Shown here: positions 9,565 to 64,000 of the stretch, in pieces | Layout: the number at the start of each line of letters is the position of its first letter | Position numbering within the stretch: the first letter of the stretch is position 1 | Origin: an uncultured Myxococcales bacterium | Lineage (GTDB): Bacteria > Myxococcota_A > UBA9042 > CAIXZC01 | Length of the DNA stretch: 64,000 nucleotides | Assembly (NCBI GenBank): GCA_964626565.1 | Contig: CAZVFX010000003.1 | Span: forward strand, 45,906 to 109,905 | Reading direction: 5' to 3' | Translations under genes and position numbers: made by a program | The notes under the pieces: generated by a model | The model's input: only the letters and a program-made list of their open reading frames with translations | Database searches by the model: none | What the model was told of the DNA's origin: nothing

Positions 9565-9567
9565 GGT

Positions 9568-10569: not shown

Positions 10570-10580
10570 GATAATCCCTC

Positions 10581-11126: not shown

Positions 11127-11129
11127 GAT

Positions 11130-28682: not shown

Positions 28683-28897
28683 CCTCTCCCCCTGCTTCAC
28701 CCTCGAACGCCAGCATGCGCCACATGTTCGCGCACGCAGCATGCGTTGCCAAATTTTCTGTTGGGCCCGGGGCTCACTGTTTCCGTTGCAATCCGCGTGC
28801 AAGGCCACCTATTCTGGTAGCGTCGCATTTCAGGAAGAGGTTGAGGGAAGACCGAGAAGGAACAGTTGTAGGGCCGCCGGACAAGCAAGGAGTCTCA

Positions 28898-34469: not shown

Positions 34470-34531
34470 CTTCTGCCGGGCCGGGCGAACTCCGTTCCCC
34501 GGTGAACTCAACGGAATCCATAGGGTGTAAC

Positions 34532-46353: not shown

Positions 46354-46359
46354 GAGCGC

Positions 46360-47100: not shown

Positions 47101-47154
47101 CAACAAACCTCCTTTCGCTGCCGGACGTAATGTAGCCAAGACAGGGTGCTTAAG

Positions 47155-47838: not shown

Positions 47839-47886
47839 GGGCTCCTCCTGGTTTGCCGCACCGAGATTAGCGCACCAGGTGTGCTG

Positions 47887-47913
47887 TTGCAAGATGGTGG
47901 TTTCTGGTATAGT
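47887..47913 (+). promoter_or_regulatory. Candidate sigma70 promoter TTGCAA-15-TATAGT upstream of giant gene G5
   Basis: Hexamers read from sequence; the spacer is slightly short. Confidence 0.3.
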
Positions 47914-47949
47914 GGTCAAAGCACTCAAGCAACGCGGAGGTGCGCGGTT

Positions 47950-50900
47950 ATGCGCCAGTTGATCGCAGTCATTTTTACGCTTCTCGCCGGGGCCGCATGT
48001 GCCGGATCGGGTGGGGTAGCGCTCCTCAACGACCAGGGCGGCGGTGACCTCGACGCGGCAGTCATGCCGGATGCCGGACTACCCGACCGGGGAGGGCCGG
48101 CGGACGTTCCGTTCGATCCGGGCGGCCCCGAGGACAGCAAGCAGGAATTCGTCTCCTGCATGGCAGGCACCGGGTGTTTCGGTGAACCGTGCGACGACGG
48201 CGGGGACTGCCTGTCCGGATTTTGCGTAGATCACATGGGCAACCAGGTGTGCTCTGAAGCGTGCGTGGAGGAGTGCCCCGCAGGCTGGTCGTGCCAGCAG
48301 GTTTCGGGGCTGGGCCCTGACCTGACTTTCGTTTGCGTTTCCGATTTCCGGGTGCTCTGCCGACCTTGCACCGACAACGACGACTGCGCCAGCACCTCGG
48401 GGCAGGAGGACCTGTGCGTCACATACGGCGCTTCCGGACGTTTCTGCGGCGCAGCCTGCGGTGAAGAGAAACAGTGCCCGGAAGGGTACAACTGTGAGGA
48501 CGTAGGGGCCGCAGGAGAATCGCTGTTCCAATGTGTCGCCGACGCGGAAGAGTGCGAGTGTTCAGACCTGGCGGTGGAACTGGCGGAGCACACGGTTTGC
48601 GAGGTGTCCAACGACTTCGGAACCTGCGAAGGTATCAGGAAGTGCACCTCCGGCGGCCTCACCGCGTGCGACGCGGACGAACCTGCGGCTGAGCAGTGCA
48701 ACGGTTCAGACGACAATTGCGATGGCGAAACCGACGAGGCAACGTGCGACGACGACAACGATTGCACCGAGGACCTGTGCGAAGGCGTCGATGGGTGTGC
48801 TTTCGAACCGCTGGAAGGAACCACCTGCGACGACCTCAACCCCTGCACCGTCACCGACCACTGCGTGAGCGGCGATTGCGTGGGGACAGCAGTGCAGTGC
48901 GACGACGGCAACCCCTGCACCGATGACCTGTGCGACGGTCAGTCGGGATGTATTTTTGAGGCCAACAGCGATATCTGTGATGACGGGGACCCCTGCACCA
49001 TTGGAGACCTGTGCGTGGAAGGAGAATGCCAGGGCACCGCGGTGGAGTGCGACTGCGTGGCCGATACCGATTGTGCAGCCTTTGAAGATGGCGACCTCTG
49101 CAACGGGACACTCTATTGCGACAAGTCGGGAGTGCAATTCAAGTGCGCCGTCGCCCCGGACACGATTGTCGTCTGCCCGCCGCCCGCAGGACCCGACGCA
49201 GCCTGTCTGCAAGCATCGTGCGCGCCGGTCACCGGCGCCTGTTCACTGACCCCGGCCAACGAAGGGCAAGTGTGCAGCGACGGCGACCAGTGCACCTATG
49301 GTGAAAGCTGCTTCCAGGGGACCTGCAGTGGGGGCGCCGAGCTGAACTGCAATGACGCGAACCAGTGCACCGCGGACTCCTGCAACCCCGACTCGGGCTG
49401 CCAGCACTCGCCGGTGAACGGAGGGTGCAACGACGGCGATTCGTGCACCGGCCCGGACGCCTGTTTTGACGGGCAGTGCGCGGCCGGTCCGCCCCTTAAT
49501 TGCGATGACAACAACCAGTGCACCGCGGACAATTGCGACTCCGCGCTCGGGTGCACCCATCTATACCTGGATCAGGGGTGCGACGACGGCAACCAGTGCA
49601 CCATGGGCGACCATTGCGAAGGAGGCCTGTGCCTGCCTTCCTCCATGCTCGGATGCGACGACGGCAACCCGTGCACGGATGATTCGTGCAACTCCCAAAC
49701 CGGCTGCCTTCACACCCACAACAACGCAGCCTGCAGCGACGGCAACCAGTGCTCCTCCAACGACTACTGCCAGGACGGAACGTGCCAGCCCGGCGAAGAG
49801 TTGGATTGTGAAGACAACAACCAGTGCACAGAGGACGTATGCAACCCACTCCTCGGATGCCTGCACACCAACAACGCCGGCGTTTGCGACGACGTGGACC
49901 CGTGCACGCTCCAGGACAAATGCTCCGGCGGGGTGTGCGTCGGCACGACGCCGAAGGACTGCAACGACGACAACCCGTGTACGGATGACAAATGCATCCC
50001 CATGGCCGGCTGCTCCTACGACAACAACGACAACCCGTGTGATGACGGAAACTCCTGCACGACGGGAGACAAATGTGCGGCGGGAAGCTGCCAGCCCGGG
50101 GAACCTTCCTCCTGTGAAGACGGCAACGTCTGCACCGACGATGCTTGCGTCCAGGGGCAGGGCTGTGTTCACGAACCCAACGACGCCGGGTGCGACGACC
50201 TCAACGAGTGCACCACCGGAGATACTTGCAAGCAAGGTCAGTGCAGCGGCACCGGGTCGCTGGAATGCGACGACGGCAAGCCGTGCACCAAGGACATTTG
50301 CCTCCCCGGCGGCGGCTGCCTTCATGAGGACGCTGAAGCCCCGTGCTCGGACGGAGACCCGTGCACCGTGGGCGACGTGTGCGAGGCGGGAGAATGCGTG
50401 TCCGGTCCCGCACCCGACTGCGACGACGGCAACCCCTGCACCGACGACTCGTGCGGAGCCGACGGGGCCTGCGACCACGCCCCCAACCAGGCTGCTTGCG
50501 ACGATGGAAATCCTTGCACAATTGGTGACCACTGCGACGACGGCTGGTGCGCACCGGAAGGGCCGCTGGATTGCAACGACGACAACCTGTGCACCACCGA
50601 TAACTGCGACCCGTTGCAGGGATGCATCTACACGTTGAACTCCAACCCCTGTAATGACAACGACGCTTGCACCATAAACGACCTGTGCGGAGCGGGAAGC
50701 TGCGGCGGGGGCGGTTCATTGAACTGTGAGGACGCCAATCCGTGCACCGTAGACAGTTGCGACCCCGCGGCCGGCTGCATCCACTTGTGGGCCGACGCTC
50801 CGTGCGACGATTTCAACCCCTGCACCGAAGGGGATCATTGCGACGAGGGAGTGTGCAAGCCGGGTTCGACGGTAGGATGCGATGACCAGGATGTCTGCAC

Positions 50901-51708
50901 AGACGATTCGTGCGACGTGCAGGCCGGGTGCGTGCACACCCACAACCAGGCGCCGTGCAACGACCTCAATGAATGCACCACCGGCGACGTTTGCGCCGCC
51001 GGTGTGTGCGCCGGACCCGATGGCCTCAACTGTGACGACGGCAAAATCTGCACCGACGATTCGTGCGTTCCCGATAGCGGCTGCGTGCACCTGAACAACT
51101 CCGCTCCGTGTAGCGACAACAACAGTTGCACTGAAGACGATAGCTGCTCGGGGGGAAGCTGCCAGCCGGGAAGCCTGATCAACTGCAACGACGGAGACGA
51201 GTGCACAACCGACAGTTGCGACCCGGTCCAGGGCTGCATTCACTCCAACAACAACAACTGCTGCTCTCCCAGCGGCAATCGTGTTGCTTTCAACTCCATT
51301 TCGCAAGACTCCGCAGGCGGCTGCTGGAACGGCAACCCCTGTGGCACCGACTCCTACTCGTGGAACGGCAACGGCCAGGCGTTTTCGGGCTTTGGCCAGT
51401 CCATTACGTGCAGCGGCGCGAGCGGCTGCGTTGCACAGGTAGGAATCACCACATACTCCGGCGGCAATTCGGTATGCCAGGGCAAATGGGACGTGTACTG
51501 CAACAACGAAAAGCAGTGCACCATCACGACTCTCGGCACAAGCTGCGCGGGGAGCGCCATGGGCAACGGTTGCAAGTGTAATTTCCCCAAAGCCAAGAGC
51601 TGCTCGTCCATCAAGCTGGTATCGGTCCAGGATGGCGACGGAACGGGGAGTTGCTGCGGAGGCTCACCTCAACCCGATTCGATGATCACTGCAGTAAGCG
51701 CCTGGTAG
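47950..51708 (+). CDS. Giant (about 1250 aa) secreted lipoprotein G5 with more than 25 tandem CDDGNPCTxDxC repeats; the start is the internal M (MRQLIAVIFTLLAGAACAGSG)
   Basis: Conserved N-terminal Cys module (GEPCDDGGDCLSGFCVDHMGNQVCSEACVEECPAGW...) plus a MopE-like CNGSDDNCDGETDEA. A long array of ~38-aa repeats follows (CxDGNxCTxDxCxxxxGCxHxxNxAxCxDGxxCTxGDxCxxGxCxxG). The Cys/Gly/Ser-rich C-terminal ~150 aa are unknown. Confidence 0.8.
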   Translation: MRQLIAVIFTLLAGAACAGSGGVALLNDQGGGDLDAAVMPDAGLPDRGGPADVPFDPGGPEDSKQEFVSCMAGTGCFGEPCDDGGDCLSGFCVDHMGNQVCSEACVEECPAGWSCQQVSGLGPDLTFVCVSDFRVLCRPCTDNDDCASTSGQEDLCVTYGASGRFCGAACGEEKQCPEGYNCEDVGAAGESLFQCVADAEECECSDLAVELAEHTVCEVSNDFGTCEGIRKCTSGGLTACDADEPAAEQCNGSDDNCDGETDEATCDDDNDCTEDLCEGVDGCAFEPLEGTTCDDLNPCTVTDHCVSGDCVGTAVQCDDGNPCTDDLCDGQSGCIFEANSDICDDGDPCTIGDLCVEGECQGTAVECDCVADTDCAAFEDGDLCNGTLYCDKSGVQFKCAVAPDTIVVCPPPAGPDAACLQASCAPVTGACSLTPANEGQVCSDGDQCTYGESCFQGTCSGGAELNCNDANQCTADSCNPDSGCQHSPVNGGCNDGDSCTGPDACFDGQCAAGPPLNCDDNNQCTADNCDSALGCTHLYLDQGCDDGNQCTMGDHCEGGLCLPSSMLGCDDGNPCTDDSCNSQTGCLHTHNNAACSDGNQCSSNDYCQDGTCQPGEELDCEDNNQCTEDVCNPLLGCLHTNNAGVCDDVDPCTLQDKCSGGVCVGTTPKDCNDDNPCTDDKCIPMAGCSYDNNDNPCDDGNSCTTGDKCAAGSCQPGEPSSCEDGNVCTDDACVQGQGCVHEPNDAGCDDLNECTTGDTCKQGQCSGTGSLECDDGKPCTKDICLPGGGCLHEDAEAPCSDGDPCTVGDVCEAGECVSGPAPDCDDGNPCTDDSCGADGACDHAPNQAACDDGNPCTIGDHCDDGWCAPEGPLDCNDDNLCTTDNCDPLQGCIYTLNSNPCNDNDACTINDLCGAGSCGGGGSLNCEDANPCTVDSCDPAAGCIHLWADAPCDDFNPCTEGDHCDEGVCKPGSTVGCDDQDVCTDDSCDVQAGCVHTHNQAPCNDLNECTTGDVCAAGVCAGPDGLNCDDGKICTDDSCVPDSGCVHLNNSAPCSDNNSCTEDDSCSGGSCQPGSLINCNDGDECTTDSCDPVQGCIHSNNNNCCSPSGNRVAFNSISQDSAGGCWNGNPCGTDSYSWNGNGQAFSGFGQSITCSGASGCVAQVGITTYSGGNSVCQGKWDVYCNNEKQCTITTLGTSCAGSAMGNGCKCNFPKAKSCSSIKLVSVQDGDGTGSCCGGSPQPDSMITAVSAW

Positions 51709-51721
51709 GGAGGCGAAACCG

Positions 51722-54007
51722 ATGATGACTCGAGCTTGTCTGGCCGTTTTTCTACTGCTTCCGCTGTCAGCCTGCACCGGCAGCGGCACCGACGACTGCG
51801 TCGAGATTTGCGATGGCAAATGCGGCGCGTATGAAGGGTGCGACTGCGAAGGCTGCGGGGATGGCTTTGCATGCGAAGACAACGTGTGCATGGAGGCGTG
51901 CATCCCGGTTTGCGACGGCTTCGAATGTGGGGACGACGGTTGCGGCGGAAGCTGCGGCTCCTGCCCGCTCGCAGCGCCCGCGTGCAACGCGGGCTCGTGC
52001 TGCACGCCTGACTGCGCGGACGCGGAGTGCGGAGACGACGGTTGCGGCGGCGTGTGTGGAGTGTGTTCCGAGGATTTGCCGGAGTGCGTTGAAGGCCTTT
52101 GCTCCGCGGTCTGCGTCCCAGATTGCGAAGACAAAGAGTGCGGGGATGACGGTTGCGGCAACAGTTGCGGCGACTGCCCCACCGCCGCACCGGTATGTAA
52201 CGAAGGCCTTTGCGAACCTGATTGTGTCGGTAATTGCGAGGGCCTCGAATGTGGGGACGACGGCTGCGGTAAAAGCTGCGGCGGCTGTCCGGACAATCAC
52301 GTGTGCCTGGCCGAAGGGGTCTGCCTGTGCCAGCCCGATTGTGCCGGAAAATGCGGCGAAGACGGGTGCGGGGGCGAGTGCGGCGAATGCCCCGGGCTGC
52401 AGGAAGATTGTGTCGACGGCTTGTGCGTCTGCCAGCCCGCTTGCGACAGCAAGAACTGTGGACCTGACGGTTGCGGCGAAAGCTGCGGTGAGTGCCCCGA
52501 AAATCACGACTGCCTGGCCGACGGCACCTGCCTGTGCGTCCCCGACTGCTCCGGTTCCGATTGCGGCAGCGACGGCTGCGGCGGCTCTTGCGGCAGTTGC
52601 GGCTGTGGAGAGTACTGCATCGACGGCTTATGCGTCTTCACCGCGTGCGACGGCAAGGAATGCGGGCCGGATACGTGCGGGGGAAACTGCGGCGTCTGTC
52701 CGCCCGGCGCCGCGTGCGTCCAGGGCCTCTGCCCGCCGGAAGGAACCGGGTGCGAGGATTTCAATGAGACGCCCTGGGACGGCTGTACGGACGGGCAGGT
52801 CACGGAGTTCCAGGCCAACGAGTATACCCAAGGGGATCAGAAAGCGCCTGACATCGCCATGCTGGCCGACGGTCGGTTCCTGGTCGTCTGGCAAAGCGCG
52901 CTGCAGGACGGCAACAGCGAGGGTGTATTTGCCCGCTTCTTCTTCCCGGGCCTCGAGCCCGACGCCGGCGACTTCCAGGTGAACAGCGAAAGCTACGGAA
53001 CCCAGAAAGACCCCCGGGCTGCCGCAGTGGGAGAAGACCGATTCGTAGTGGTGTGGGTCAGCTCGGGCCAGGACGGATTCATGGATGGGGTCTTCGGCCA
53101 GTTGTTCGACCTGGACGGGTTCCCCGATGGCGACGAGTTCCAGGTGAACACTTATACAACCGCCAGTCAGATTGCCCCCGCGGTGGCCGGATTTCCCGGC
53201 GGCTTTGTGGTTGTCTGGGAGAGCCCCGGGCAGGACGGGTCCGATACCGGAATCATGGGCCAGCGCTTCGCACCCGATGGCGAGAAGTGGGGCACCGAAT
53301 TTCAGGTGAATACCTACTTCCTGGTCGCGCAGAAGGCGCCCGCAATAGACACCTTTGACGACGGCAGGTTTGTGGTGGCATGGAGCAGTTGGTCCCAGGA
53401 CGGCTCCGATTGGGGGGTCTTCGGCCAGCGCTTCATGGCGAACGGCGACATGGAAGGGCAGGAGTTTCAGGTGAATACCCACACCGGGGAGCACCAGTAC
53501 GCGGCCAGCGTTGCCGTGACTGGAGACTCCACTTTCGCCATGTCGTGGCAGAGCCTGGACCAGGACGGCTCCGACTACGGGATCTACGGACAGCGCTTCA
53601 ACCTGTCCGTGGGCAAGTCAGGCTCGGAATTCAAGCTCAATGAGCATATCGACCAGGTGCAGGAGGCCCCGTCCCTGGCCGCGGCTCCCACCGGGGACTT
53701 TGCCGCCGCGTGGCAAAGCTGCGCCACCCCCGGCGCGGTGGACCCGCCTCAGGACGGCGACGGCTGCGGAATCGTCGCCCGCCGGTACCAGGCGAACGGC
53801 TCTGCTGTGGGCCAGGAGTTCGTGGTCAACGTCTCCCCCACCGGGGAACAGACGGGTGCAGCCACCGCGATGTCTGCGGCCGGCGATTTTGCCGTTACCT
53901 GGGCAAGCTGCCCGCCCCCGACCCAGCCCAACTCGGCCCAGGATGGAAGCGGATGCGGCATTTTCGTGCAGCGTATCAATCCCGATGGAGAGCGTCTCTA
54001 TCGCTAG
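51722..54007 (+). CDS. Secreted lipoprotein (761 aa): nine CxGxxCGxDGCGGxCGxC modules followed by eight ~50-aa beta-propeller-like repeats (EFQVNTYT..Q..P.VA...GGFVVVW.S..QDGS..GVFGQRF)
   Basis: Signal MMTRACLAVFLLLPLSACTG. RBS GGAGG 8 nt upstream, 13 nt after the G5 stop (operon). Repeats read directly from the translation. Confidence 0.8.
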   Translation: MMTRACLAVFLLLPLSACTGSGTDDCVEICDGKCGAYEGCDCEGCGDGFACEDNVCMEACIPVCDGFECGDDGCGGSCGSCPLAAPACNAGSCCTPDCADAECGDDGCGGVCGVCSEDLPECVEGLCSAVCVPDCEDKECGDDGCGNSCGDCPTAAPVCNEGLCEPDCVGNCEGLECGDDGCGKSCGGCPDNHVCLAEGVCLCQPDCAGKCGEDGCGGECGECPGLQEDCVDGLCVCQPACDSKNCGPDGCGESCGECPENHDCLADGTCLCVPDCSGSDCGSDGCGGSCGSCGCGEYCIDGLCVFTACDGKECGPDTCGGNCGVCPPGAACVQGLCPPEGTGCEDFNETPWDGCTDGQVTEFQANEYTQGDQKAPDIAMLADGRFLVVWQSALQDGNSEGVFARFFFPGLEPDAGDFQVNSESYGTQKDPRAAAVGEDRFVVVWVSSGQDGFMDGVFGQLFDLDGFPDGDEFQVNTYTTASQIAPAVAGFPGGFVVVWESPGQDGSDTGIMGQRFAPDGEKWGTEFQVNTYFLVAQKAPAIDTFDDGRFVVAWSSWSQDGSDWGVFGQRFMANGDMEGQEFQVNTHTGEHQYAASVAVTGDSTFAMSWQSLDQDGSDYGIYGQRFNLSVGKSGSEFKLNEHIDQVQEAPSLAAAPTGDFAAAWQSCATPGAVDPPQDGDGCGIVARRYQANGSAVGQEFVVNVSPTGEQTGAATAMSAAGDFAVTWASCPPPTQPNSAQDGSGCGIFVQRINPDGERLYR

Positions 54008-54094
54008 CAAAACAGGGGCGCGAACGCCCGCCCGCATTAAAAAAAGACAGCAGTTCTCAACACGAAGGAATCACTGATTATACGGGCTTTTCGC

Positions 54095-54123
54095 TTGACT
54101 CCCCAAGGCCCCTGAGGTATATC
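54095..54123 (+). promoter_or_regulatory. Candidate sigma70 promoter TTGACT-17-TATATC upstream of the Memo-like gene
   Basis: Hexamers and 17-nt spacer read from sequence. Confidence 0.4.
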
Positions 54124-54159
54124 CCGCTCGACTGAATGAAGGTTACTACGGGGGTCTAA

Positions 54160-55017
54160 ATGGACCTTGTCAAAAGCACATTTGCCGGCTCATGGTATCC
54201 GGGAACGAAAAAAAAGATCGAAAACAAGATAGGTGAATTCAAGGAGAACGTCGGCCGCCCACAGAAGTTGAAGAAACCTCCGGTGGCGGGCATCGTTCCC
54301 CATGCCGGCTGGATGTATTCCGGCCGGATTGCCTACGAAGTTCTGGACAACCTCGCGCCTCGCAATCCCGACCTGGTCGTGCTGTTCGGCGGCCACGTTC
54401 ACCAGTATCAGCGTTCACTCATCTTCGCCGGAGACGGCTTCGAGACTCCGCTAGGGCCCGTCATGTGCCACAAGGAGATGGTTCAGGGGCTGTCCGGAGC
54501 GTTCAGGTTCCGACCGGTGGAGACTTCGGCCTGGGAACCGGACAACACCGTTGAAGTTCAGTTGCCCCTGGTAAAGCACCTGTTCCCCGAAGCCAAGGTA
54601 GTTATTCTGCATCTGCCCCCCCGGGACATCATTCTGGACATCGTGGACCTGATCATGGAGTTCGTCAGACGTTACGACACCAAGCCGGTCTTTGTGGGCT
54701 CCACAGACCTGACGCACTACGGGCCCCGGTACGGCATGACCTCCTACGGAGTGGGTGAGAAATCCCACCGCTGGGCCAAGGGTGATAACGACGCCGCGTT
54801 TATCAGCAAGCTGGTCAGCCTCGACCCTCAAGGCTGCCTGGAGGAAGGGCTGAGCAACTACAATGCGTGCTGCCCCGGCGCGGCGGCCGCGGCGGTAACA
54901 GCGGCCCGGCTCATGGGTTCCGAATACGGCGAACTGCTGACCCATGCGACGAGTTATGAGATTGTACCCGTGGGCGAACCGGTGGATTTCGTCGGCTACT
55001 GCTCAGTTGTATTCTAA
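54160..55017 (+). CDS. Memo-like protein (AmmeMemoRadiSam system protein B family)
   Basis: The AGSWYP ... AGIVPHAGWMYSG ... VVLFGGHVH motifs match Memo1/MEMO family conserved His/Cys sites. Confidence 0.7.
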   Translation: MDLVKSTFAGSWYPGTKKKIENKIGEFKENVGRPQKLKKPPVAGIVPHAGWMYSGRIAYEVLDNLAPRNPDLVVLFGGHVHQYQRSLIFAGDGFETPLGPVMCHKEMVQGLSGAFRFRPVETSAWEPDNTVEVQLPLVKHLFPEAKVVILHLPPRDIILDIVDLIMEFVRRYDTKPVFVGSTDLTHYGPRYGMTSYGVGEKSHRWAKGDNDAAFISKLVSLDPQGCLEEGLSNYNACCPGAAAAAVTAARLMGSEYGELLTHATSYEIVPVGEPVDFVGYCSVVF

Positions 55018-55040
55018 ATCAAGCTTACTGTCGGGTAAAA

Positions 55041-56057
55041 ATGGCAGGTGATGGTTGCATAGCCATGGTGCTGGCGGCCGGCTTCGGCAGCCGGTTGGAA
55101 CCTTTCAGCAGTAAATACCCCAAACCGCTGCTCCCTTTCTTCGACGTTCCTCTCATCGACTACACGCTGTTCAAGTTGGCCCGCTCAGGCATCAAGACCA
55201 TAGTCGTCAATCTTCACCATCGGGCCGAGGTCCTCCAGCCACACTTGGACGCCGCGGCCCAGCGGCTGAACACCGAGTTCGGCGTCACCCTGCACCTCTC
55301 CTTCGAGGAGGAAATCCTGGGCACCGGTGGAGGGCTGGCCCGGGCGAAAAAGTTCTACGACGGCAGCTCGCTGTTGGTGGTGAACTCCGATATCTTCTTT
55401 GATTTCCACCTTCCCGACCTGCTCTCCTATCATCGTCAAACCGGCGCCTCGGCAACCGCCTTGCTCCACGACGGCAGCGGACTGGAGCACCTGCGCAGCA
55501 CTTTGACCGATGACCGGGGCCGCATCATCTCCATCGGGAAGGCCGACCCGCAAAACGCGTCCAAGGGCGTCTTTGCCGGGGTATATCTGCTGGAGCCGGA
55601 GGTATATCGCCTGCTGCCGAATCGAAAGTGCTCGGTCATCGACGCAGGTTTCCGGCCGGCCATGCGGTCAGGACTGCCGGTTCAAGGATGCCGTCGCTTT
55701 TTCAACTGGCAGGATCTGGGCACGTGGCGCGGCCTGTCTTCGGCTGTGTTTGCGGTGCTGAACACGGGCAGCCTGTCGGCTTTGGCTGAGGGCCCGTATC
55801 GAGAGGTGCTGCAACTGTCTCCCGGGCGGTTCATCTTCGAGAGCGGCGAAGCCGGGATCACACCCCCGGCGTACATCGGCCCCGGAGTCCAAATCCCGGA
55901 GCAGTCGGCCGCCGGCCCCACGGTCGCGGTTTGCTCCGGAAGCCGCGTCCAGCCGGGCGCCACACTGTCTGGTTCCCTGTTGCTTCCGGGAAGCGTCGCT
56001 GAAGGGCGAATTGCGGACTCCATCCTGTGGGAAGGGTGGTCCACTCTTCTTACTTAA
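55041..56057 (+). CDS. Sugar-phosphate nucleotidyltransferase (NTP_transferase N-domain plus C-terminal left-handed beta-helix)
   Basis: MVLAAGFGSRLEPFSSKYPKPLLP is the nucleotidyltransferase G-loop/PKP motif. The 338-aa length is like GlmU/GMPP/MurU-type enzymes. Confidence 0.7.
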   Translation: MAGDGCIAMVLAAGFGSRLEPFSSKYPKPLLPFFDVPLIDYTLFKLARSGIKTIVVNLHHRAEVLQPHLDAAAQRLNTEFGVTLHLSFEEEILGTGGGLARAKKFYDGSSLLVVNSDIFFDFHLPDLLSYHRQTGASATALLHDGSGLEHLRSTLTDDRGRIISIGKADPQNASKGVFAGVYLLEPEVYRLLPNRKCSVIDAGFRPAMRSGLPVQGCRRFFNWQDLGTWRGLSSAVFAVLNTGSLSALAEGPYREVLQLSPGRFIFESGEAGITPPAYIGPGVQIPEQSAAGPTVAVCSGSRVQPGATLSGSLLLPGSVAEGRIADSILWEGWSTLLT

Positions 56058-56157
56058 AGTCTACATTGGTTTGTTGTTGAACGTCATCTCGAAACACGCT
56101 ACATTAGCCGATAAGTAACCTTGATAAGTTTGGGGACGTTTCTCAAAAGGAACCGCA

Positions 56158-59100
56158 ATGAGTAGAAAAAAACAACTGTTCGACAAGCTCAAAGATGCAC
56201 CCACCGATCGCTCCGCGTTGGACAACCTGGTGGGGTTCTTTGCCCGTCGTGGTGAGTTCCAGGAGTTGTACGAAGGGCTACAGGAGATGGTCGAAGGATT
56301 CAGCGACCATGCGACTGTGGAGGCTTTTCGCAAGTTGCTTGTGGACATCACCCGGCGGCACCTGGACTCCACCACCGATACGGTGCTGGCGGCAAACTTG
56401 AAGCTGAGACTCGCCAGCCTGCTTTTCGAGCAGATGGGAGAAACCCGTGATGCGTTGATCCTGGTCACGGAGGCGTTCGAGCAGATACCGTCTGATGAAG
56501 TGGCCCAGCGGGCGCTGGACATGCTCAAGAAGATGAAGATGCCGCTGTTTGAGGTCCAGCTTCTTCGCCAGAAGGCGTTGAGCGAAGACGGCACCGACAA
56601 GAAGGCGGACACGTTACTCCAGTTGGGCCATTCGGCCCTCAATTGCGACAAGGTACACGAAGCCCGCAAGGCCTTCGAGGAGCTGTCTCTTTACTCCGAG
56701 GCATGGGCCGAAAAAGGGCAGGAAGGCCTCAAGCTCGTAGATAACGCAGAAAAGGAACTGGCCGAAGGAATCGCAGAGCTGGAGAAGGCCATCCCGGAGG
56801 CCACCGATGTGGAGCGGCCGCTCCTGAAACAAAAATTGGGCCGGCTGTACGTCTCCCGGGGAGAATTTGACGAGGGGATCGCACTGCTGGAAGAGGTTGT
56901 GGACCACGAGTCTTCGGACGAAGGAATCATCGAGTTGGTCTCTGCCTACAAGGAAAGCGAGCACTGGCAACGGCTCATCAACCTTTGCGACCAGTTTGCC
57001 GACCAGGTCAAGTCTAAGGAGGTCCGCAAAGAGCTCTACAAGGAGCGGGTACGGGTGTTCGTACAGCGATTCGAGGATCGCGACAGCGGATTCGCCGCGA
57101 TGGAAGAGCTCTATTCGCGGTTCCCGGGCGTCTCAGACGTAGTGGAGTTCTGCGCTCAGACATACTCGACCTACGAAGACTACGAAGGGCTCGCCGAATT
57201 GCTGGGACGCGCCCGCCGCGACACCAAGAACCGCGACCAGGAACGGCGCTACCTGGAATGGGAAGCGTCGATTCGGTGGCACAAGCTGGATCAGCTTGAC
57301 GACGCCGAGAAGTTGTACCGGCGCATCAAGTCCATCGACCCGCGCAACGAAGCTGCACTCCTGTTCTACGAGAAGTTCTGCCTTGATAAGGGCGATTTCC
57401 GGAAGCTCTATTCAACCCTGTCTACACGGCAGAGCCTGGTGCCGGACCGCCAGAAGGTTGCCATACTCAAGAACATGGCGGAGATAGCTCGGGACCATCT
57501 CAGTTCCCCGGACCGGGCCATCGACTCGCTGAAGAAGGTCCTCGTCCTGCTGCCCGAGGACGAAGCCGCATTCACCGACCTGGCGACCCTGCTTGAAGAG
57601 ACCAAGCGTTGGCACGCAGTTATCGAACTGTACACCTCCCGAGCCGAACGGCTGCCGGAGGAAGAGGCCGACGAAAAACTGGAGTTGCTGCGCAAGACTC
57701 TGGACATCTATTCGTCCAAAGACAAGCTGCCTGTTCCGGAGATGGTGGTCACCGTCTACCGCAAGATCCTGCAAATCGACCCCCAGAACCGAGAGGCTCT
57801 GGACGCCCTGGGCGACTACTATCAGAGCAATCGCCGCTGGAGCGAGCTTACCGACGTGCTGGAGAAGAAAGCCGCACTGGAAGACGACAGCACCCGCAAG
57901 ATGGAGTTGCACCGGGAGATTGCCGAAATCCTCATTGAATACCAGCACCAGGAAGGCGCAGCCATACCGCACCTGGAACAGGTCGTAGAACTGGCGCCCA
58001 AAGACAGCCAGGCTATGGGCCTGCTGGCTCGAGCCTACCGCAGTCGGGGTGAATTCGAAAAGTTCTTCGAAATCGGCCAGCAGCAGTTGACCATGGTGAA
58101 GGGGAAGGAACGCACGGAACTCCTCGAGGAACTATCCACCATTGCCTTGGAGAGGCTCCAGGCCGACGAGGACGCTGCCAACCTGCTGGAGCAGTTGGTC
58201 GCATCGGCCCCAAAACATCCGTGGGCATTCAGAAGACTTAGCCAGCTATATACCAAGCTGGAGCGATTCGACGAGCTCGCTGAGCTTCTCGGCCGCGGCG
58301 TCGAGAAGGCGAGCACTGCAAACCAGAAGCGGGAGATGCGGGAGAAGCTGGGGCAACTGCTGGCCGAAAGGCTCGGCAGGTTCGACGAAGCCCGCAGCAT
58401 CTTCCTGGAACTGTTGGACGAGAACCCGACCAACCGGCAGGCAAAGCAGTCCCTTCACCGATTGCTGGCCCAAGCGGGCGAGTTTGCCGAACTGGAAGAC
58501 ATGTTCACCCAGGACAACAACCTTCCCGGCCTGGTCCGCTTCCTCGACGAATATCGTCACAAGGAAACCGACCTGGAGCGAGTGAAGTCCGCGGGTCTCG
58601 AGATGGTGCGTATTTCGGACCATTTGCTCAACGACAAACCTCGGGCCAGGCAGCTCCTCGAAACGCTTCTGGAGCAGTTGCCGGATGATGCCGAGGTTGC
58701 TCGGACCCTGTTGGGCTACTATCCGAAAAAACGGGCGGACATGGACGTCGCCCGGGCCCTGGGCGTCATCGCAGACAACACCGACGGCTCGGAAGCAAGA
58801 GAGGCGGCATTCAAGTTGTCCGACGTACTGGAGCGCATCGGCGAATTCGAGGCGAGCTACACCAGAACTCTCGGCCTCTTTCTCGAGGACGTTCGGGGCG
58901 GGGATCTGGATCTCCTCGAATCTCTTATCGACCGTGCGGAAAAGGCCGACACTCTGGAAGATTTCTCGTCGGTGGTCGTTGAACTGCTGGACGAAGATCT
59001 GGAGAGTGCGATTCGAGTTGAACTGGCTATCCAGGTTGCCGACGTGCACAAGTCCCGGCTGAAGGATCAGGGCCGGGCCCGGGAACTGTTGCAATCGCAG

Positions 59101-62100
59101 TTGGAGCGCGAGCCCAGCTCTGTGGAGTTGCTGAAGCAGTTGGAGAAGATCTACACCGGGGCGGGCAACTGGGACGAGCTGGAAGGTGCGGTCAGAGCGC
59201 TGGCCGACCTCGCCATGGACGTAGACGACAAGAAGGAGGAGTTGTACAAACTCGCACGCCTCTACGAAGAGATCACCACCGACCAGGAAAAGGCGGTCGC
59301 AGTGTACGAGGAAATCCGGGAGACCGACCCCGGCGACTCCGAGGCCTATGCCGGACTCAAGCGGATGCTGGAGGAGTTGGAGCAGTGGGAAGAGATGGCC
59401 GGAGTGCTGGAAGATGAGTTGCAATTCGCGGACGACGAGCAGGCGCGGGAGAACCTCCTGCAACTGGCGAGCCTGTACGATGACCAGCTTGCAAACGCGG
59501 ACACCGCGGCCTCGTTCTGGCAGCAGGTAGTCGAACGGTGGCCTGATGACGGCGACGCCTGGGGCGAACTCGAACGTTACTTCAAGGAAGACGAAGCTCT
59601 GGAGCTGGTGGTGCCGCTGCTGGAGGCCCGATACGAAGGGGCCGAGGCGTGGGCCGAACTGGTGGATGTGCTGTCCAAGAAATCCCAGGTCTCCGATGAC
59701 GAAATGGAGAGGTTCGACACCCTGGGCCGGTGCGCCGAGATTCTGGGGGAGAAGTTGTCCAATCCCGGAGAGGCCTTCGGGTTCCTCACCCATATGGTCA
59801 CCATCAATCCTTCCGAGCCCGACCTGCTCGGACGTCTTGAAGCCACTGGCCGTGAAGGCGAAAAGCTCAACGAGCTGTTCGACATCTACAAGGGGTTGTT
59901 GGCAATCGGAGAGAGCGAGTTTTCGGCTTCGGAGCCCTTTGATGAAGGGCTGGAGATGGATGCCGCGCTGTCCCTGGCCGGACTGGCCCGTGAGTTGGAT
60001 GACAACGAAGTTGCAGTCGACGCACTCATGCGTGCCCGCGCTCACGCGCCGTCCGACCTGGCAATCTTCCAGCAACTGGAGGAACTGCTGGAGCAGCAAG
60101 AACGCCACGAAGAGCTGTTCGAGTTGCTGGTCGAGAAGAAAGATGCCGTCTGGGAGGAAGACGACAAGAAGGAACTGTACGTCCGGGTGGCAGATCTCCT
60201 CACCGCAAAACTGGACCGCGAAGAGGAATCTATCGAGTGGATAGAATTGCTGCAGGCCGCGGACGAAGCTGACCTCGAGGTCGCCGAGCGCCTCGAAGGC
60301 CTGTACCTCAAGTATGAGAAGTGGGACGAAGTCGCGTCCCTGTTGCGCTCCAAGCTGGCCCGCCTTGATGGGGACGAACGCCGCGGGGTCGCGTATCAAC
60401 TCGCAATCGTGTACCGGGACAACCTGGCTGACCTGGAGTCCGCGTACGAGATCCTGTCGGAAATCGTTGCTCAGGACGACTCCGACGAGATGTGCATCGA
60501 GGCGCTGTCGTTCATGCTGAAGATGAGCGAGGCCGAGGGCTACGACAGCGTGGCCCTGAAGGTAGTATCGGTGCTCGAGCCTATCGCCACCCAAGGGGAA
60601 AACTGGCAACTCCTGGCAGATGTGCTCGAAGTGAGGGCCGCCATGGCTCCCGAGCCCATCGACGCGGCAATGGCCTGGCATAATCTGGGGAGTCTGTACC
60701 GGGACCGGCTGGATGACGCGGGCCGGGCTTTCGACGCGATGGCCCGGGGAGTGGAGCAAGCGCCGGGTATCGACGAACTGCTGGCCGACCTGCTGTCCGA
60801 GGCCGAGGCCCAGGACCGGACCGGAGAAGCCATCGATGCCATCGAGAAGGGCATGGGCGGTATAGACGCGGCTGACGATGTCGCGCCACTGGCTGCGCTG
60901 GCTGCAACAGTGCGGAAGCACACCGACGACCTGGACAAGGCTGCGTTAGCCTACGAACGGCTCATCGAGCTGGCCCCCGAGAACCTCGACAACTACTGGG
61001 CTCTGGACGAAATCTACGAGCAATCGGAAAACACCGAGGGGCGGATCCGCGTGCTGGGTGACGTCGCAGACCGCCTGGAGGGCAAAGAGCAGGCGGACGC
61101 GTGCGTGACGCTGGCCGAGTTGCAGGTGGGCCGACAGGAGCGGGAGGACGCGGTGTTCTCCCTCAACCGGGCACTCACCAACCCCGACCTTCTCGACGAG
61201 AATCGCCGGGCCCTGGCGTTCCACCTCCTGGTAGACGCACTGGAGACCGAAGAGAACTGGTTCGACCTTTCGCAGGCGCTCATGGCGCAACTTCAGTTCG
61301 TGGATGACGCCGACGAGAAAAAGGCACTTCTCTTCCGCGCCGCCGGGCTGGAGGAAGAACAGCTCGGCAACCCGGAACGCGCGATCGAGCACTACTACTC
61401 CATAGTTGATGCCGACCCCACCGAGAACATGGCTACCGAGGCGCTGTATCGGCTCCTTGAGGCCACTTCCAGATTCGAGCAGTTGGAGCAACTCCTGGCC
61501 GGACAGGCGGAACTCACCGACAGTTTCGAAGGCAAGAAGGAGCTGCTGCTCCGGTTGGCCCGGGTGCGCTTGTTCGAATTGAGCAACCCTGACAGCGCGG
61601 TGGACGCCCTCGGTCGAATGGCGGATGAAGACGGTATCGGAGAGCCCGAGGTGGAACTGCTGGAGCAGGTGCTGGAGAGCTTCCCGGACAGCGGATTCCG
61701 CGCCTCCCAGTTGCTGGAGCAGGCTTACGAACGGAATACTGAGCACGAAAAACTGGCGGAGATCTACCGGGTACAAATCGACCGGTATGCCGAAGAGGTG
61801 GACCGGGTAGAACGATACCGGGATCTGGCCAGCCTTTACGAGGCGCACTTCTCCGATGTGGACACTGCGTTCCTGTACATCAGCCAGGCGTTCAAGCTTG
61901 AGCCCACGTCTGAGGCGATTCACGAACAGTTGGTGCAATACGCCCGGGAGCGAGGCAGCTTCGACGAGCTGTTTGATATCTACCTCGACGTACTGGTGCA
62001 GTTGGAAGAGGCCGAAAGCCGTAACAACCTGCGCTCCAAGATGGTGGGCATCTACCACGACGAGCTGAAGGACCTGGAGCACGCCGAGGTGATCTACCGG

Positions 62101-64000
62101 GACATGTTGGATGATGACCCGGGCCACGCCTATGCCATCGAGAAGTTGCAGGAGTTGTACCGTGAAACTGAAGCATGGGATAAGTTGGTGGACGTGCTGC
62201 GCACCAGCGCGGAGTCAACCCGTTCCGATAAGGCTCGGGTCGCAACGCTCTACGAAATCGCCGCAATCTACCGTGAAAGCACCGGAGACCTGGCTGAGGC
62301 GATGGACACCTACGAGCAGATCCTCGCCGCCGACCGTGGCCAGTGGGACGCCTATCGCGGCATTGAAAGCATCTATTTTGAAAAAGGGGACGTGCAAGGT
62401 GTGATCTCCTGCCTCAGGCGGGAAATCGACGCCCGGGAGGAACCGGAAGAACGACGCGAGGTTCAGCTTCGCCTGGCCGCAATTCAGTTCACGGAACTGC
62501 AGGAGTACGACCCGGCGGTGGAAGAGATTGCCAACATCCTGGTCGAGGAACCCGAAGACGAAGGGGCCCTGGAGCTGTTGCGTGAAATCGTTGACCAGTG
62601 GGAAGAGCCGTCGGAGCCGGCCATCGACTTGCTGGTCTCCGCTCACACCGGCAAGGAAGAGTGGGACGCCCTGGTCGGGCTTTACCAGGCCCTCGCAGGC
62701 AGAGCCCAGGGGCAAGAGGAAAAACGGGAGTGGTTGTCCCGCATCTACGACGTTCGTACGACGTACCAGTCGGACGCCACTGGGGCTTACGCCGCGTGCA
62801 AGATCATGGTCGCACTGGACCCCGCCGACGGCGAACGGCTCAATCTCCTGGTGCAACACGCAGTGGAAATCGACGATATCAAGGACCTGGTCTCGTTCCT
62901 GGGTTCGACGCTGGAGGACGACCGGGTTGCGGGAACCGATCTGGAACCCGATCTTCGCTTCCTTCTCGGCAGCGTGCTGCAAGGCCATGCCGACGACAAC
63001 CAGGGAGCTGCTGATCAGTTCGAGAAGGTGGCCGAAAGCGAACACCCGACCCTGGCTCCCGATGCACGGCGTCTGCTGAGGACCCTGTATCCGGAGTTGG
63101 AATCCTGGGACCAGTATGTCGCATTGTTGGAGACACTTAGCACCGAAGCCCCCGACCCCATGGAGCGCAAGCAACTCCTGCTGGAAGCGGGCGGAGTGGC
63201 GGCCGACACCCTCAAAGATGATGACAAGGCGTTGGAACTGTTCGCCACCCTTGCTGACGAGTTCCCCGACGATACCGAATGTCTCGACCCCTATGAGCAG
63301 ATTCTCACTCGCCTCAAGCAGGTGGAAGACTTGGAGGCCCTGCTACGTCAGCGGGTGGACATGACCGCCGATGAAGGAGAGCGGGCCGCAGTGCGGTTGC
63401 GCCTGGGTAGCCTGGTGCTCGCACAGGACGACCGCACCTCGGAAGGGGTGGACGAATTGCTCATGGCGCTGCAGGAGACTCGAGAACTGCCGGTGCTGTG
63501 GACCATTCTCGAGAGCCTCATGGGCTCAGACGACAGCCCGGAGGAAGACCGCACTCGTATCGCCCGGGCACTTCTGGACGCCTACCCGGATGACACCGAG
63601 GCAGCCAAGGTGTCGGCCGCACTGGAGACCCAGTTGAGCCTCGAGGAAGACGAAGATGAGTCCAACCGCCTCCACTTGCAACTGGCCGAACTCCACGAAG
63701 GGGGAGAGGATGCGGAAAAGGCGTTCTTCCACTACTCCCAATCGCTAAAGCTGTATCCCGGCGCCGGCAAGGTCGAAAAGAAGCTTCGGAAACTGGCCAA
63801 GGGTGCCTCCCTGCACGCTGAACACCGGGATCTCCTGGTGGACCTGGTAGGCCTTGTGGACGACGAAACGCTGCAAGCTCGATACCTGTTGGAAGCTGCC
63901 GGGCTCGAGCGAGGCGAACTGGCCTCCGCAGATAGCGCTGCGGCTCTCTACGAAAAGGTGCTCGAACTCGACCCCGCGAACAAGGAGTCTCTCGGCGAAC
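56158..64000 (+). CDS. Giant (>2610 aa, 3' partial; runs off the window) acidic helical-repeat (TPR-like) protein; absent from the ORF track, presumably because no stop lies within the window
   Basis: Manual translation from ATG 56158 (RBS AAAGGA) in frame 1 is open to the window end. The product is Leu/Glu/Asp/Ala-rich with recurring ~34-40-aa units (…A..LY….G.W.E….). No + strand ORFs are listed in this frame across 56158-64000, and the listed minus-strand ORFs here are low-complexity antisense artefacts. Confidence 0.7.
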   Translation, partial: MSRKKQLFDKLKDAPTDRSALDNLVGFFARRGEFQELYEGLQEMVEGFSDHATVEAFRKLLVDITRRHLDSTTDTVLAANLKLRLASLLFEQMGETRDALILVTEAFEQIPSDEVAQRALDMLKKMKMPLFEVQLLRQKALSEDGTDKKADTLLQLGHSALNCDKVHEARKAFEELSLYSEAWAEKGQEGLKLVDNAEKELAEGIAELEKAIPEATDVERPLLKQKLGRLYVSRGEFDEGIALLEEVVDHESSDEGIIELVSAYKESEHWQRLINLCDQFADQVKSKEVRKELYKERVRVFVQRFEDRDSGFAAMEELYSRFPGVSDVVEFCAQTYSTYEDYEGLAELLGRARRDTKNRDQERRYLEWEASIRWHKLDQLDDAEKLYRRIKSIDPRNEAALLFYEKFCLDKGDFRKLYSTLSTRQSLVPDRQKVAILKNMAEIARDHLSSPDRAIDSLKKVLVLLPEDEAAFTDLATLLEETKRWHAVIELYTSRAERLPEEEADEKLELLRKTLDIYSSKDKLPVPEMVVTVYRKILQIDPQNREALDALGDYYQSNRRWSELTDVLEKKAALEDDSTRKMELHREIAEILIEYQHQEGAAIPHLEQVVELAPKDSQAMGLLARAYRSRGEFEKFFEIGQQQLTMVKGKERTELLEELSTIALERLQADEDAANLLEQLVASAPKHPWAFRRLSQLYTKLERFDELAELLGRGVEKASTANQKREMREKLGQLLAERLGRFDEARSIFLELLDENPTNRQAKQSLHRLLAQAGEFAELEDMFTQDNNLPGLVRFLDEYRHKETDLERVKSAGLEMVRISDHLLNDKPRARQLLETLLEQLPDDAEVARTLLGYYPKKRADMDVARALGVIADNTDGSEAREAAFKLSDVLERIGEFEASYTRTLGLFLEDVRGGDLDLLESLIDRAEKADTLEDFSSVVVELLDEDLESAIRVELAIQVADVHKSRLKDQGRARELLQSQLEREPSSVELLKQLEKIYTGAGNWDELEGAVRALADLAMDVDDKKEELYKLARLYEEITTDQEKAVAVYEEIRETDPGDSEAYAGLKRMLEELEQWEEMAGVLEDELQFADDEQARENLLQLASLYDDQLANADTAASFWQQVVERWPDDGDAWGELERYFKEDEALELVVPLLEARYEGAEAWAELVDVLSKKSQVSDDEMERFDTLGRCAEILGEKLSNPGEAFGFLTHMVTINPSEPDLLGRLEATGREGEKLNELFDIYKGLLAIGESEFSASEPFDEGLEMDAALSLAGLARELDDNEVAVDALMRARAHAPSDLAIFQQLEELLEQQERHEELFELLVEKKDAVWEEDDKKELYVRVADLLTAKLDREEESIEWIELLQAADEADLEVAERLEGLYLKYEKWDEVASLLRSKLARLDGDERRGVAYQLAIVYRDNLADLESAYEILSEIVAQDDSDEMCIEALSFMLKMSEAEGYDSVALKVVSVLEPIATQGENWQLLADVLEVRAAMAPEPIDAAMAWHNLGSLYRDRLDDAGRAFDAMARGVEQAPGIDELLADLLSEAEAQDRTGEAIDAIEKGMGGIDAADDVAPLAALAATVRKHTDDLDKAALAYERLIELAPENLDNYWALDEIYEQSENTEGRIRVLGDVADRLEGKEQADACVTLAELQVGRQEREDAVFSLNRALTNPDLLDENRRALAFHLLVDALETEENWFDLSQALMAQLQFVDDADEKKALLFRAAGLEEEQLGNPERAIEHYYSIVDADPTENMATEALYRLLEATSRFEQLEQLLAGQAELTDSFEGKKELLLRLARVRLFELSNPDSAVDALGRMADEDGIGEPEVELLEQVLESFPDSGFRASQLLEQAYERNTEHEKLAEIYRVQIDRYAEEVDRVERYRDLASLYEAHFSDVDTAFLYISQAFKLEPTSEAIHEQLVQYARERGSFDELFDIYLDVLVQLEEAESRNNLRSKMVGIYHDELKDLEHAEVIYRDMLDDDPGHAYAIEKLQELYRETEAWDKLVDVLRTSAESTRSDKARVATLYEIAAIYRESTGDLAEAMDTYEQILAADRGQWDAYRGIESIYFEKGDVQGVISCLRREIDAREEPEERREVQLRLAAIQFTELQEYDPAVEEIANILVEEPEDEGALELLREIVDQWEEPSEPAIDLLVSAHTGKEEWDALVGLYQALAGRAQGQEEKREWLSRIYDVRTTYQSDATGAYAACKIMVALDPADGERLNLLVQHAVEIDDIKDLVSFLGSTLEDDRVAGTDLEPDLRFLLGSVLQGHADDNQGAADQFEKVAESEHPTLAPDARRLLRTLYPELESWDQYVALLETLSTEAPDPMERKQLLLEAGGVAADTLKDDDKALELFATLADEFPDDTECLDPYEQILTRLKQVEDLEALLRQRVDMTADEGERAAVRLRLGSLVLAQDDRTSEGVDELLMALQETRELPVLWTILESLMGSDDSPEEDRTRIARALLDAYPDDTEAAKVSAALETQLSLEEDEDESNRLHLQLAELHEGGEDAEKAFFHYSQSLKLYPGAGKVEKKLRKLAKGASLHAEHRDLLVDLVGLVDDETLQARYLLEAAGLERGELASADSAAALYEKVLELDPANKESLGE

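Follow-up and report, generated by a model that had tools for sequence, protein, structure and literature searches.

In Myxococcus xanthus, GltI/AgmK (MXAN_4863) is a 3,822-residue cytosolic tetratricopeptide-repeat (TPR) protein encoded in the G1 cluster gltD-E-F-G-H-I-J. GltI is essential for gliding, is found at focal adhesions in an MglA-dependent manner and is needed for the recruitment of AglZ and MglA, and a published model shows it as a ∼1,100-Å solenoid that has a sizeable C-terminal domain and carries six predicted binding sites for the FHA domain of GltG. In Sorangium cellulosum, sce2915-2918 are followed by sce2920 and sce2921 (1,774 + 2,081 amino acids; 3,855 amino acids), which are listed as homologues of MXAN_4863. 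The nfs cluster is without GltI, J and K. Here we describe a giant open reading frame (ORF) that starts at position 56158 of a 64,000-nucleotide stretch of contig CAZVFX010000003.1 from an uncultured Myxococcales bacterium; this whole stretch is referred to as the window. From sequence comparison, the encoded protein is probably a paralog or sister of GltI, a cytoplasmic scaffold of the group that we call type A, and not GltI itself.

Translation of frame 1 on the forward strand gave 2,614 codons between ATG 56158 and the end of the window with zero stops, in agreement with an earlier sequence-only reading that had described the frame as open throughout. Chance alone would place ∼88 stops in a sequence of this length and base composition, and the probability of finding none is ∼2e-39. 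The same reading had remarked that the frame is absent from the ORF track, and it is indeed missing, because the listing leaves out ORFs that run off the window. The GC content by codon position is 0.70/0.35/0.76, the third-position value (GC3) of 0.76 matching that of the neighbouring genes, and the choice of ATG 56158 as the start is supported by homologues that align from residue 1 and by a Shine-Dalgarno-like motif just upstream. A consensus scan of the forward strand found no sigma-70-like promoter for the giant gene, and terminator-like sites were not above the shuffled expectation. The giant ORF is a genuine protein-coding gene that is cut by the window end.

The continuation of the gene was located by an exact look-up of the neighbouring nucleotidyltransferase protein, which led to a metagenomic contig of 156,005 bp (Ga0105013_1000068, JGI metagenome 3300007510; locus L015) whose positions 1-18960 in L015 numbering correspond to window positions 45041-64000 and are 100% identical over 18,960 nucleotides. 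On this contig the giant frame is open through 3,300 codons. Its public gene call has 3,803 amino acids, so that the stop is expected ∼3.57 kb past the window end. The proposal that a stop should be found in adjacent contig sequence is thus borne out as far as the continuing frame goes, the stop itself lying beyond the sequence read (3300 of 3803 codons). An exact 48-mer taken at the L015 end had no match among the metagenome contigs. The same gene set is also present on Ga0118727_1000549 of metagenome 3300009128. The best match in the homologue search was 62% identical, and the 3,803-residue protein of Ga0105013_1000068 was not among its matches, though the contig has a gene-position record.

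The 2,614-residue part encoded in the window is acidic and rich in Leu (14.5%), Glu (13.4%) and Ala (11.1%), with Asp at 9.0%, an isoelectric point of 4.45 and a net charge of -280, much as the sequence-only reading had it. That reading had also seen no signal peptide; the highest Kyte-Doolittle 19-residue window reaches only 1.18, and the protein therefore has neither a signal peptide nor a transmembrane segment. The TPR-like helical repeats it had proposed are recognized by Pfam TPR families far above their cut-offs of 23-26 bits (TPR_6, 89 bits; TPR_14, 88; TPR_19, 70; TPR_8, 58), with a further Pfam match to ARM_TT21_5th, and the NCBIfam scan of the giant protein gave generic TPR matches only, all sub-threshold. 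Autocorrelation with BLOSUM62 peaks at a lag of 72 residues (z = 10.1 for the window protein and 13-21.5 in four relatives), with harmonics at 144 and 216 and a sub-period of 17 residues, whereas lag 34 reaches only z ∼4-5. A plain 34-residue TPR array is ruled out by this dominant 72-residue period (z = 10 versus ∼4). An iterated repeat hidden Markov model (HMM) delimits 34 units in the window part and ∼50 in full-length relatives, spaced mostly 69-76 residues apart, with the consensus.a....d.dek.eLl..LA.l..e.l.D.e.A..lye..le.dP.d.eal..L..lyee.e.weeL..lL.. and with the first regular unit beginning at residue 68 in the window protein and in about half of the type-A members checked.

Superimposed on this regular array are long units of 81-98 residues, each with one extra helix. 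Unit-to-unit similarity peaks at lags of 4-5, 8-9 and 13 units, which accounts for the BLAST matches lying ∼300-390, ∼680 and ∼1,000-1,140 residues off the main diagonal and, read with the spacing of the extra helices (one every 4-5 units), indicates a super-repeat of roughly 4.5 units. A super-repeat of ∼340 residues was considered as the primary period and rejected; it does not appear in the residue-level autocorrelation and is visible only at the level of units.

An AlphaFold2 (AF2) model of residues 1-1150, computed from an alignment of 25 homologues, is all-alpha, with 63 helices, no strands and a mean predicted local distance difference test score (pLDDT) of 87.4; the predicted template-modelling score (pTM) is only 0.41, a low value that a long and flexible solenoid would be expected to give. 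Helices of ∼17/14/13/14 residues follow one another in each unit, and from this four-helix pattern we take the unit to consist of two TPR-like hairpins. The top Foldseek matches in the PDB are Ski3, IFT139/TTC21B, Ctr9, TFIIIC and Naa15 (E 1e-17 to 1e-9, TM 0.10-0.15). The best of these, Ski3 of the SKI complex, IFT139/TTC21B of IFT-A and Ctr9 of Paf1C (E 1e-17 to 1e-11), are also continuous TPR solenoids that act as multi-partner platforms, but they are 3-4 times shorter, share 11-14% identity with the window protein and have no regular unit of 72 residues; they are structural analogues from the TPR superfamily and do not belong to the same family. With canonical 34-residue TPR proteins (TPR_1/2/8/14/19) the window protein shares the helix-turn-helix hairpin and scores above the gathering thresholds of several Pfam models, and it differs from them in its 72-residue period, in alternate hairpins that are unlike each other and in the one-helix insertion every 4-5 units. 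The gene product is a 3,803-residue cytoplasmic, strongly acidic all-alpha solenoid with a hierarchical repeat of ∼50 units.

The sequence-only reading had judged a cytoplasmic scaffold protein of this size unusual and had proposed a search for relatives among the giant TPR proteins of Myxococcota. Full-length homologues were found, and the size proves to be common in a large Myxococcota superfamily of proteins of ∼3.7-3.9 thousand residues. A word-indexed protein search with the window protein returned 572 homologues, the 23 closest of which are 36-62% identical with 100% query coverage (3,732-3,836 amino acids, E = 0), and more distant ones, at 21-30% identity and mostly ∼3.4-4.2 thousand residues, come from metagenome-assembled genomes (MAGs) labelled Myxococcales, Polyangia, Polyangiaceae and Sandaracinaceae. 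With residues 1-1150 as the query against 1.84 billion representatives, phmmer gave 1,253 clusters (50% identity) at E<=1e-30, and nearly all of the best 150 matches are 3.2-4.2 thousand residues long. One subgroup alone, searched with a Polyangiaceae type-A query, comprises 1,960 clusters at 90% identity; the proteins returned by that query were all from MAGs. For seven of eight relatives the best BLASTP high-scoring segment pair (HSP) lies on the main diagonal, with a score 1.4-10 times that of the best off-diagonal HSP, and the similarity is therefore colinear homology and not merely the possession of common repeats. One relative, P0509, stands apart at 7,720 residues, twice the otherwise tightly kept family size, with 106 units of ∼70 residues, a different insertion pattern and an internally duplicated block of unit lengths. 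We considered P0509 as a fusion of the two types described below and rejected this; it is a distinct 106-unit variant that lacks the C-terminal domain.

The superfamily falls into two architectures, which we define here as type A, in which the repeats run to the C-terminus, and type B, in which a non-repeat C-terminal domain of ∼330 residues is present. Among the 120 best homologues, 42 carry the domain (type B, 3,351-4,202 amino acids), 77 are type A and 1 is unclear. In the 77 type-A proteins the repeats end 0-6 residues from the C-terminus and lengths are mostly 3,718-3,868 amino acids; in the type-B protein P0040 the terminal domain measures ∼320-330 residues, within a type-B range of ∼315-360. 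A further 130 full-length representatives divided into 49 type B and 81 type A, with a median length of 3,753 residues in type A (interquartile range 3,727-3,823) and 3,810 in type B (3,585-4,041). The division does not depend on the terminal domain, since clustering on the first 3,000 residues, from which the domain is excluded, placed 42 of 42 type-B proteins in one cluster and left no protein with a nearest neighbour of the other type. P0001, a member of the window clade, likewise finds its nearest relatives outside that clade in type A, at D 0.85-0.88, the best type-B protein standing at 0.92.

The unit pattern also differs between the types. Both have long units at positions 10, 15, 19 and 24, and at 28 in type A versus 27 in type B, after which type B continues with uniform 72-residue units; type B in addition has an irregular unit of 124-184 residues at position 5. 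In type A the main long-unit positions (10, 15, 19, 24, 28, 32, 37 and 40) are identical in P0028, P0105 and P0039, which are only 22-26% identical, and the contig extension of the window protein in L015 supplies long units 37 and 40 (89 residues each). Identity to distant type-A members rises to 30-36% in residues 361-576, compared with a mean of 22%, and invariant residues are densest there (alignment A1). Types A and B both occur in MAGs labelled Polyangiaceae and Sandaracinaceae. As judged from the sequences, they look like paralogs that arose by full-length duplication of an ancestor that already had ∼50 units, and this is the simplest reading.

The type-B C-terminal domain itself is modelled by AF2 with a pLDDT of 92.5 and a pTM of 0.83 as a compact alpha domain with a three-stranded sheet (example, L006 20800-21787). 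No Pfam family matched it, and its PDB matches came only from its TPR part. It is also seen in short proteins of 437-566 amino acids (P0180, P0208 and P0223 of P0174-P0262) on contigs of 200-400 kb, where it may occur as a separate gene or appear through split gene calls, compare sce2920/sce2921 in S. cellulosum.

The identity of type B follows from its genomic setting. P0040 lies directly downstream of genes for proteins of 1,259 (TPR), 463 (TPR), 100, 741 (FHA) and 279 (TPR) amino acids in L006, and these neighbours give NCBIfam matches to GltE, CglF/GltF (above cut-off) and GltG (E 6e-137, full length), together with an AgmX/PglI tail domain. The layout around P0082 and P0049 is the same and matches the published S. 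cellulosum order, so that gltD-E-F-G and a small TPR protein precede the giant gene in all three type-B loci (L006, L011 and L012); tblastn with GltD, E, F and G gave matches only in L011 and L012 and none in type-A loci. Because of this synteny, the NCBIfam matches of the neighbours and the published table of S. cellulosum homologues, we identify type B as GltI/AgmK. In the place that gltH occupies in M. xanthus, between gltG and the giant gene, these loci carry a gene for a 279-313-residue TPR lipoprotein-like protein (L006 8818-9657, L011 8665-9606, L012 8950-9816). No gltJ follows the giant gene in these sampled non-Myxococcia G1 clusters; just downstream are a gene for an FHA-sigma54 activator in L011 and one for an FHA-GAF-guanylate cyclase in L012.

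The window gene is placed by contrast outside any such cluster. GltD-H homologues were looked for in the window and none was found, the 56 kb that precede the giant gene are free of glt genes, and no motility genes were seen among the window ORFs scanned. No glt genes occur in any of the 10 type-A loci with a visible upstream region (the window, L001, L004, L005, L007, L008, L009, L010, L013 and L014), which represent about six independent lineages. Upstream of the window gene are genes for a Dicty_CTDC protein, an unknown protein, a Memo protein and a nucleotidyltransferase, and the last pair also precedes the giant gene in L001 and L007 and not in more distant type-A loci. All members of the window clade (P0001-P0023) are type A, with repeats to within 0-6 residues of the end. 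The units of the window protein run through residue 3300, and its residues 1-3300 have no match to the type-B C-terminal domain; the type-A-specific unit pattern continues over residues 2615-3300, as read from L015, and the remaining 503 residues correspond in number to the units that close P0001. Given the type-A clade, the synteny with L007, the lack of glt genes and the unit pattern to residue 3300, we file the window gene as type A. A gltJ downstream of the giant gene was also considered and rejected; in L001, L002 and L007 the genes that follow encode an outer-membrane-barrel-like protein, a secreted protein of 627-638 amino acids and an RluA-type pseudouridine synthase, none of them GltJ-like.

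Set beside the GltI-type proteins, the window protein is thus both close and distinct. P0040, P0082 and P0049 are colinear homologues at E ∼1e-190 and ∼23% identity (P0040, E 8e-192, with a main-diagonal HSP of 372 bits), and the window protein resembles GltI as a giant (3,803 versus 3,822 residues) cytosolic TPR solenoid without a signal peptide, built from the same 72-residue unit and with long units 10, 15, 19 and 24 in common. Unlike GltI, its group is without the ∼330-residue C-terminal domain and is not found downstream of gltD-E-F-G in the sampled loci, and unlike the GltI-type proteins it has type-specific long units at 28, 32, 37 and 40, a tighter conservation of length and a separate similarity cluster. 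These likenesses could also be taken to mean that the window gene is its lineage's GltI/AgmK ortholog, which would have lost the C-terminal domain and moved out of the glt G1 cluster. The near-equal lengths, the colinearity with the G1-linked P0040 and the common long units are all compatible with such a history; in addition, gene order is flexible, gltI not always lying beside gltJ even in type B, and the window covers only 64 kb of the organism, so a type-B gene could lie elsewhere. We nevertheless consider orthology unlikely, given that glt genes occur in none of 10 type-A loci and in three of three type-B loci, that type B forms a single similarity cluster from which the window clade is excluded, that both types are present in MAGs of the same two labels and that beyond unit 28 the pattern of units is specific to type A.

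Several points weigh against placing the window protein in a sister branch of GltI. In a clustering of BLAST scores by the unweighted pair group method with arithmetic mean, the large type-A group from Polyangia unites with type B first and the window clade joins later, and monophyly of type A is therefore not established; the window clade may have branched off early. A search for the two types in one genome, through accession and locus-tag neighbourhoods, found all pairs in different MAGs. The type-A C-terminus of the window protein is deduced from its length of 3,803 residues and its 61% identity to the 3,800-residue P0001, its residues having been read to 3300. No neighbour gene is conserved across the type-A lineages of the 10 loci. 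The equation of type B with GltI is based on synteny, NCBIfam and the homologue table; the M. xanthus GltI sequence was not returned by the family searches, and a query with the C-terminal domain of P0040 gave metagenomic fragments only. Lastly, the scaffold mechanism for type A is drawn purely by analogy with GltI.

The sequence-only reading had left the function of the protein blank. A function of its own can still only be inferred, but membership in the GltI/AgmK superfamily means that the blank is not complete. By analogy, a multivalent scaffold role is the most likely one for type A, and the window protein would then act, like GltI, as a very long multivalent scaffold in the cytoplasm. 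Helices of ∼14-18 residues pair into TPR-like hairpins, two hairpins make the 72-residue unit, and ∼50 units form a solenoid with a super-repeat of 4-5 units. In the scaffold scheme its periodic surfaces would hold one kind of partner domain, or a few kinds, in many copies at roughly one site per super-repeat, probably beneath the inner membrane. The ∼50-unit ancestor would have been duplicated, with type B keeping or gaining the ∼330-residue C-terminal domain and its place downstream of gltD-E-F-G, and type A having neither. Since type A has no GltI C-terminal domain and no glt context, its partners probably differ from those encoded in G1; candidates are the FHA-bearing GltG paralogs of Glt-like systems or an unrelated assembly. 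Comparison across the family shows the fixed unit number and pattern to be under strong length constraint. It is conceivable, if on balance doubtful, that type A represents a second, independent giant cytoplasmic ruler or scaffold whose strictly kept ∼50-unit length determines how the parts of some envelope-associated machine, distinct from Agl-Glt G1, are spaced or in what stoichiometry they occur, with the Glt-like Nfs, G4 and G5 systems (which have FHA-bearing GltG paralogs and no GltI of their own) or a cell-wall- or cytoskeleton-linked assembly as candidate machines.

The gene neighbours hint at another role, in which the giant TPR scaffold would be tied to cell-envelope precursor or peptidoglycan metabolism and not to a motility-like machine. 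In the window clade the gene follows those for a MurU-like or mannose-1-phosphate-guanylyltransferase-like nucleotidyltransferase and a Memo protein, with NagK-like kinase, GH4, DegT and PIG-L genes upstream on the other strand and NamZ nearby in L007; YkuD and 3D-domain genes come after the giant gene in L008, and in L009 and L010 its direct neighbour is an Aminotran_4 gene. Conservation of each such neighbour is, however, limited to a single sub-clade, and we therefore give this alternative little weight. At other type-A loci their place is taken by genes for ABC transporters, HEAT proteins, an RND pump or molybdoenzymes, and the 100-nucleotide gap before the gene and its size of 11.4 kb fit a gene with its own expression signals, so that an envelope-metabolic role appears very unlikely beside the multivalent scaffold of the GltI kind. 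The Aminotran_4 (class IV aminotransferase) gene stands directly beside the type-A gene in two unrelated lineages (L009 9120-9845 and L010 21332-22210), upstream in one and downstream in the other, which is maybe a coincidence. The view that the gene is non-functional, its frame being a by-product of biased composition or a decaying pseudogene, could appeal to the low-complexity, repeat-rich sequence and to the long ORFs on the opposite strand, but is effectively refuted by the negligible chance of a stop-free frame, by full-length homologues at 22-62% identity whose lengths are kept within a few per cent, by long-unit positions kept even at 22% identity and by the confident AF2 model.

The ORFs on the opposite strand have a simple origin. 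All five minus-strand ORFs that the sequence-only reading had dismissed as antisense shadows are present where it placed them, and four of the five are in codon-for-codon antisense phase. Their composition, rich in Leu, Val, Gln, Gly and Phe, is the complement of the sense codons for Glu, Asp, Leu and Ala. From the antisense phase and the complementary amino-acid bias we conclude, with that reading, that they are shadows and not genes. For annotation, this means that giant genes of this kind should not be dismissed as low-complexity ORFs, and that antisense shadows, which reach 891 amino acids here, should not be called as genes. The features of the giant gene, its immediate neighbours and the antisense ORFs are collected in the table.

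Table. Features of the giant gene and its surroundings, in window positions
Feature	Position	Strand	Basis or remark
Memo/AmmeMemoRadiSam-B protein	54160-55017	+	Pfam, NCBIfam
Sugar-1-phosphate nucleotidyltransferase	55041-56057	+	Pfam, NCBIfam
Shine-Dalgarno-like AAGGA, 6 nt before ATG 56158, in a 100-nt A+T-richer intergenic gap	56147..56151	+	sequence read directly
5' 2,614 codons (69%) of the 3,803-codon giant gene, filed as type A	56158..64000	+	open frame, Pfam TPR, homologues, contig gene call
N-terminal cap, residues 1-67, helical	56158..56358	+	first regular unit at residue 68; AF2 helices 3-13, 18-31, 34-47, 51-71
34 tandem four-helix units of ∼72 residues	56359..64000	+	autocorrelation, repeat HMM, consensus, AF2
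Unit starts, residues 68, 139, 210, 280, 352, 423, 497, 571, 642, 714, 799, 870, 943, 1015, 1086, 1175, 1256, 1327, 1398, 1493, 1564, 1635, 1711, 1783, 1873, 1945, 2017, 2089, 2179, 2253, 2327, 2399, 2492, 2563			
Best-conserved type-A stretch, residues 361-576 (units 5-7 and first residues of unit 8), candidate partner-binding surface	57238..57885	+	identity profile
Long unit 10, 85 residues	58297..58551	+	position common to types A and B
Long units 15 (89 residues) and 16 (81 residues)	59413..59922	+	position 15 common to types A and B
Long unit 19, 95 residues	60349..60633	+	position common to types A and B
Long unit 24, 90 residues	61504..61773	+	position common to types A and B
Long unit 28, 90 residues	62422..62691	+	type-B counterpart at unit 27
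Long unit 32, 93 residues	63352..63630	+	type A only
Antisense shadow ORF, 891 residues, not a gene	58246..60921	-	antisense phase, amino-acid bias; sense-frame full-length homologues at E = 0
Antisense shadow, not a gene	60946-62127	-	same basis as 58246..60921
Antisense shadow, not a gene	62215-63174	-	same basis as 58246..60921
Antisense shadow, not a gene	57412-57972	-	same basis as 58246..60921
Antisense shadow, not a gene	56061-56669	-	same basis as 58246..60921

The remainder of the window holds other features that we record here. Upstream of the Memo gene, a 1,520-residue ORF with at least 10 Dictyostelium-type Cys-rich (Dicty_CTDC) repeats lies at 47146-51708 (+), for which the public gene call starts later (1,252 amino acids), and the 761-residue ORF at 51722-54007, which has no Pfam match, is split in the public call into a minus-strand gene of 246 and a gene of 382 amino acids; its counterpart in L007 is a single gene of 698 amino acids. 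Two presumably secreted proteins of 1,413 and 1,313 amino acids (2524-6765, +, and 24867-28808, -) contain MopE metal-binding motifs along with thrombospondin type-3 repeats, to which the second adds a fibrinogen-C-like segment, and two more giant ORFs, of 1,943 and 1,907 amino acids (17396-23227, -, and 34415-40138, +), have a coding-like GC3 and match no Pfam family. A Psr/Phs-like set at 7814-13340 (-) comprises a molybdopterin oxidoreductase (736 amino acids), an NrfD-type membrane subunit, a small ORF between them and a Sulf_transp protein, and is flanked by a ModE-like HTH-PBP regulator at 6942-7817 (+). As far as gene content can tell, this set suggests that the uncultured myxobacterium may respire polysulfide or thiosulfate.

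A literature search for a second family of giant TPR proteins in myxobacteria found none described. Far from being an oddity or an orphan, the window gene belongs to a large, unnamed and previously undistinguished sister family of GltI/AgmK. This matters for the gliding machinery, in that among the large components of the bacterial focal-adhesion motor GltI is the one least understood, and the sole structural proposal for it has it clustering several motors by way of repeated GltG-FHA sites. What is new is that GltI belongs to a much larger superfamily built on a fixed array of 72-residue units, that this superfamily has a sister branch of equal size that lacks the C-terminal domain and lies outside the glt clusters, and that length and insertion positions are kept down to ∼22% identity. 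The N-terminal two-thirds that the two types share, set against the divergent C-terminal third, separate the scaffold-generic features of these proteins from the gliding-specific ones. If the doubtful ruler role were true of type A, it would add a new cell-biological element to the phylum, one possibly missed by work on M. xanthus; in either case, the comparison nominates for study an uncharacterised and widespread family of 11-kb genes.

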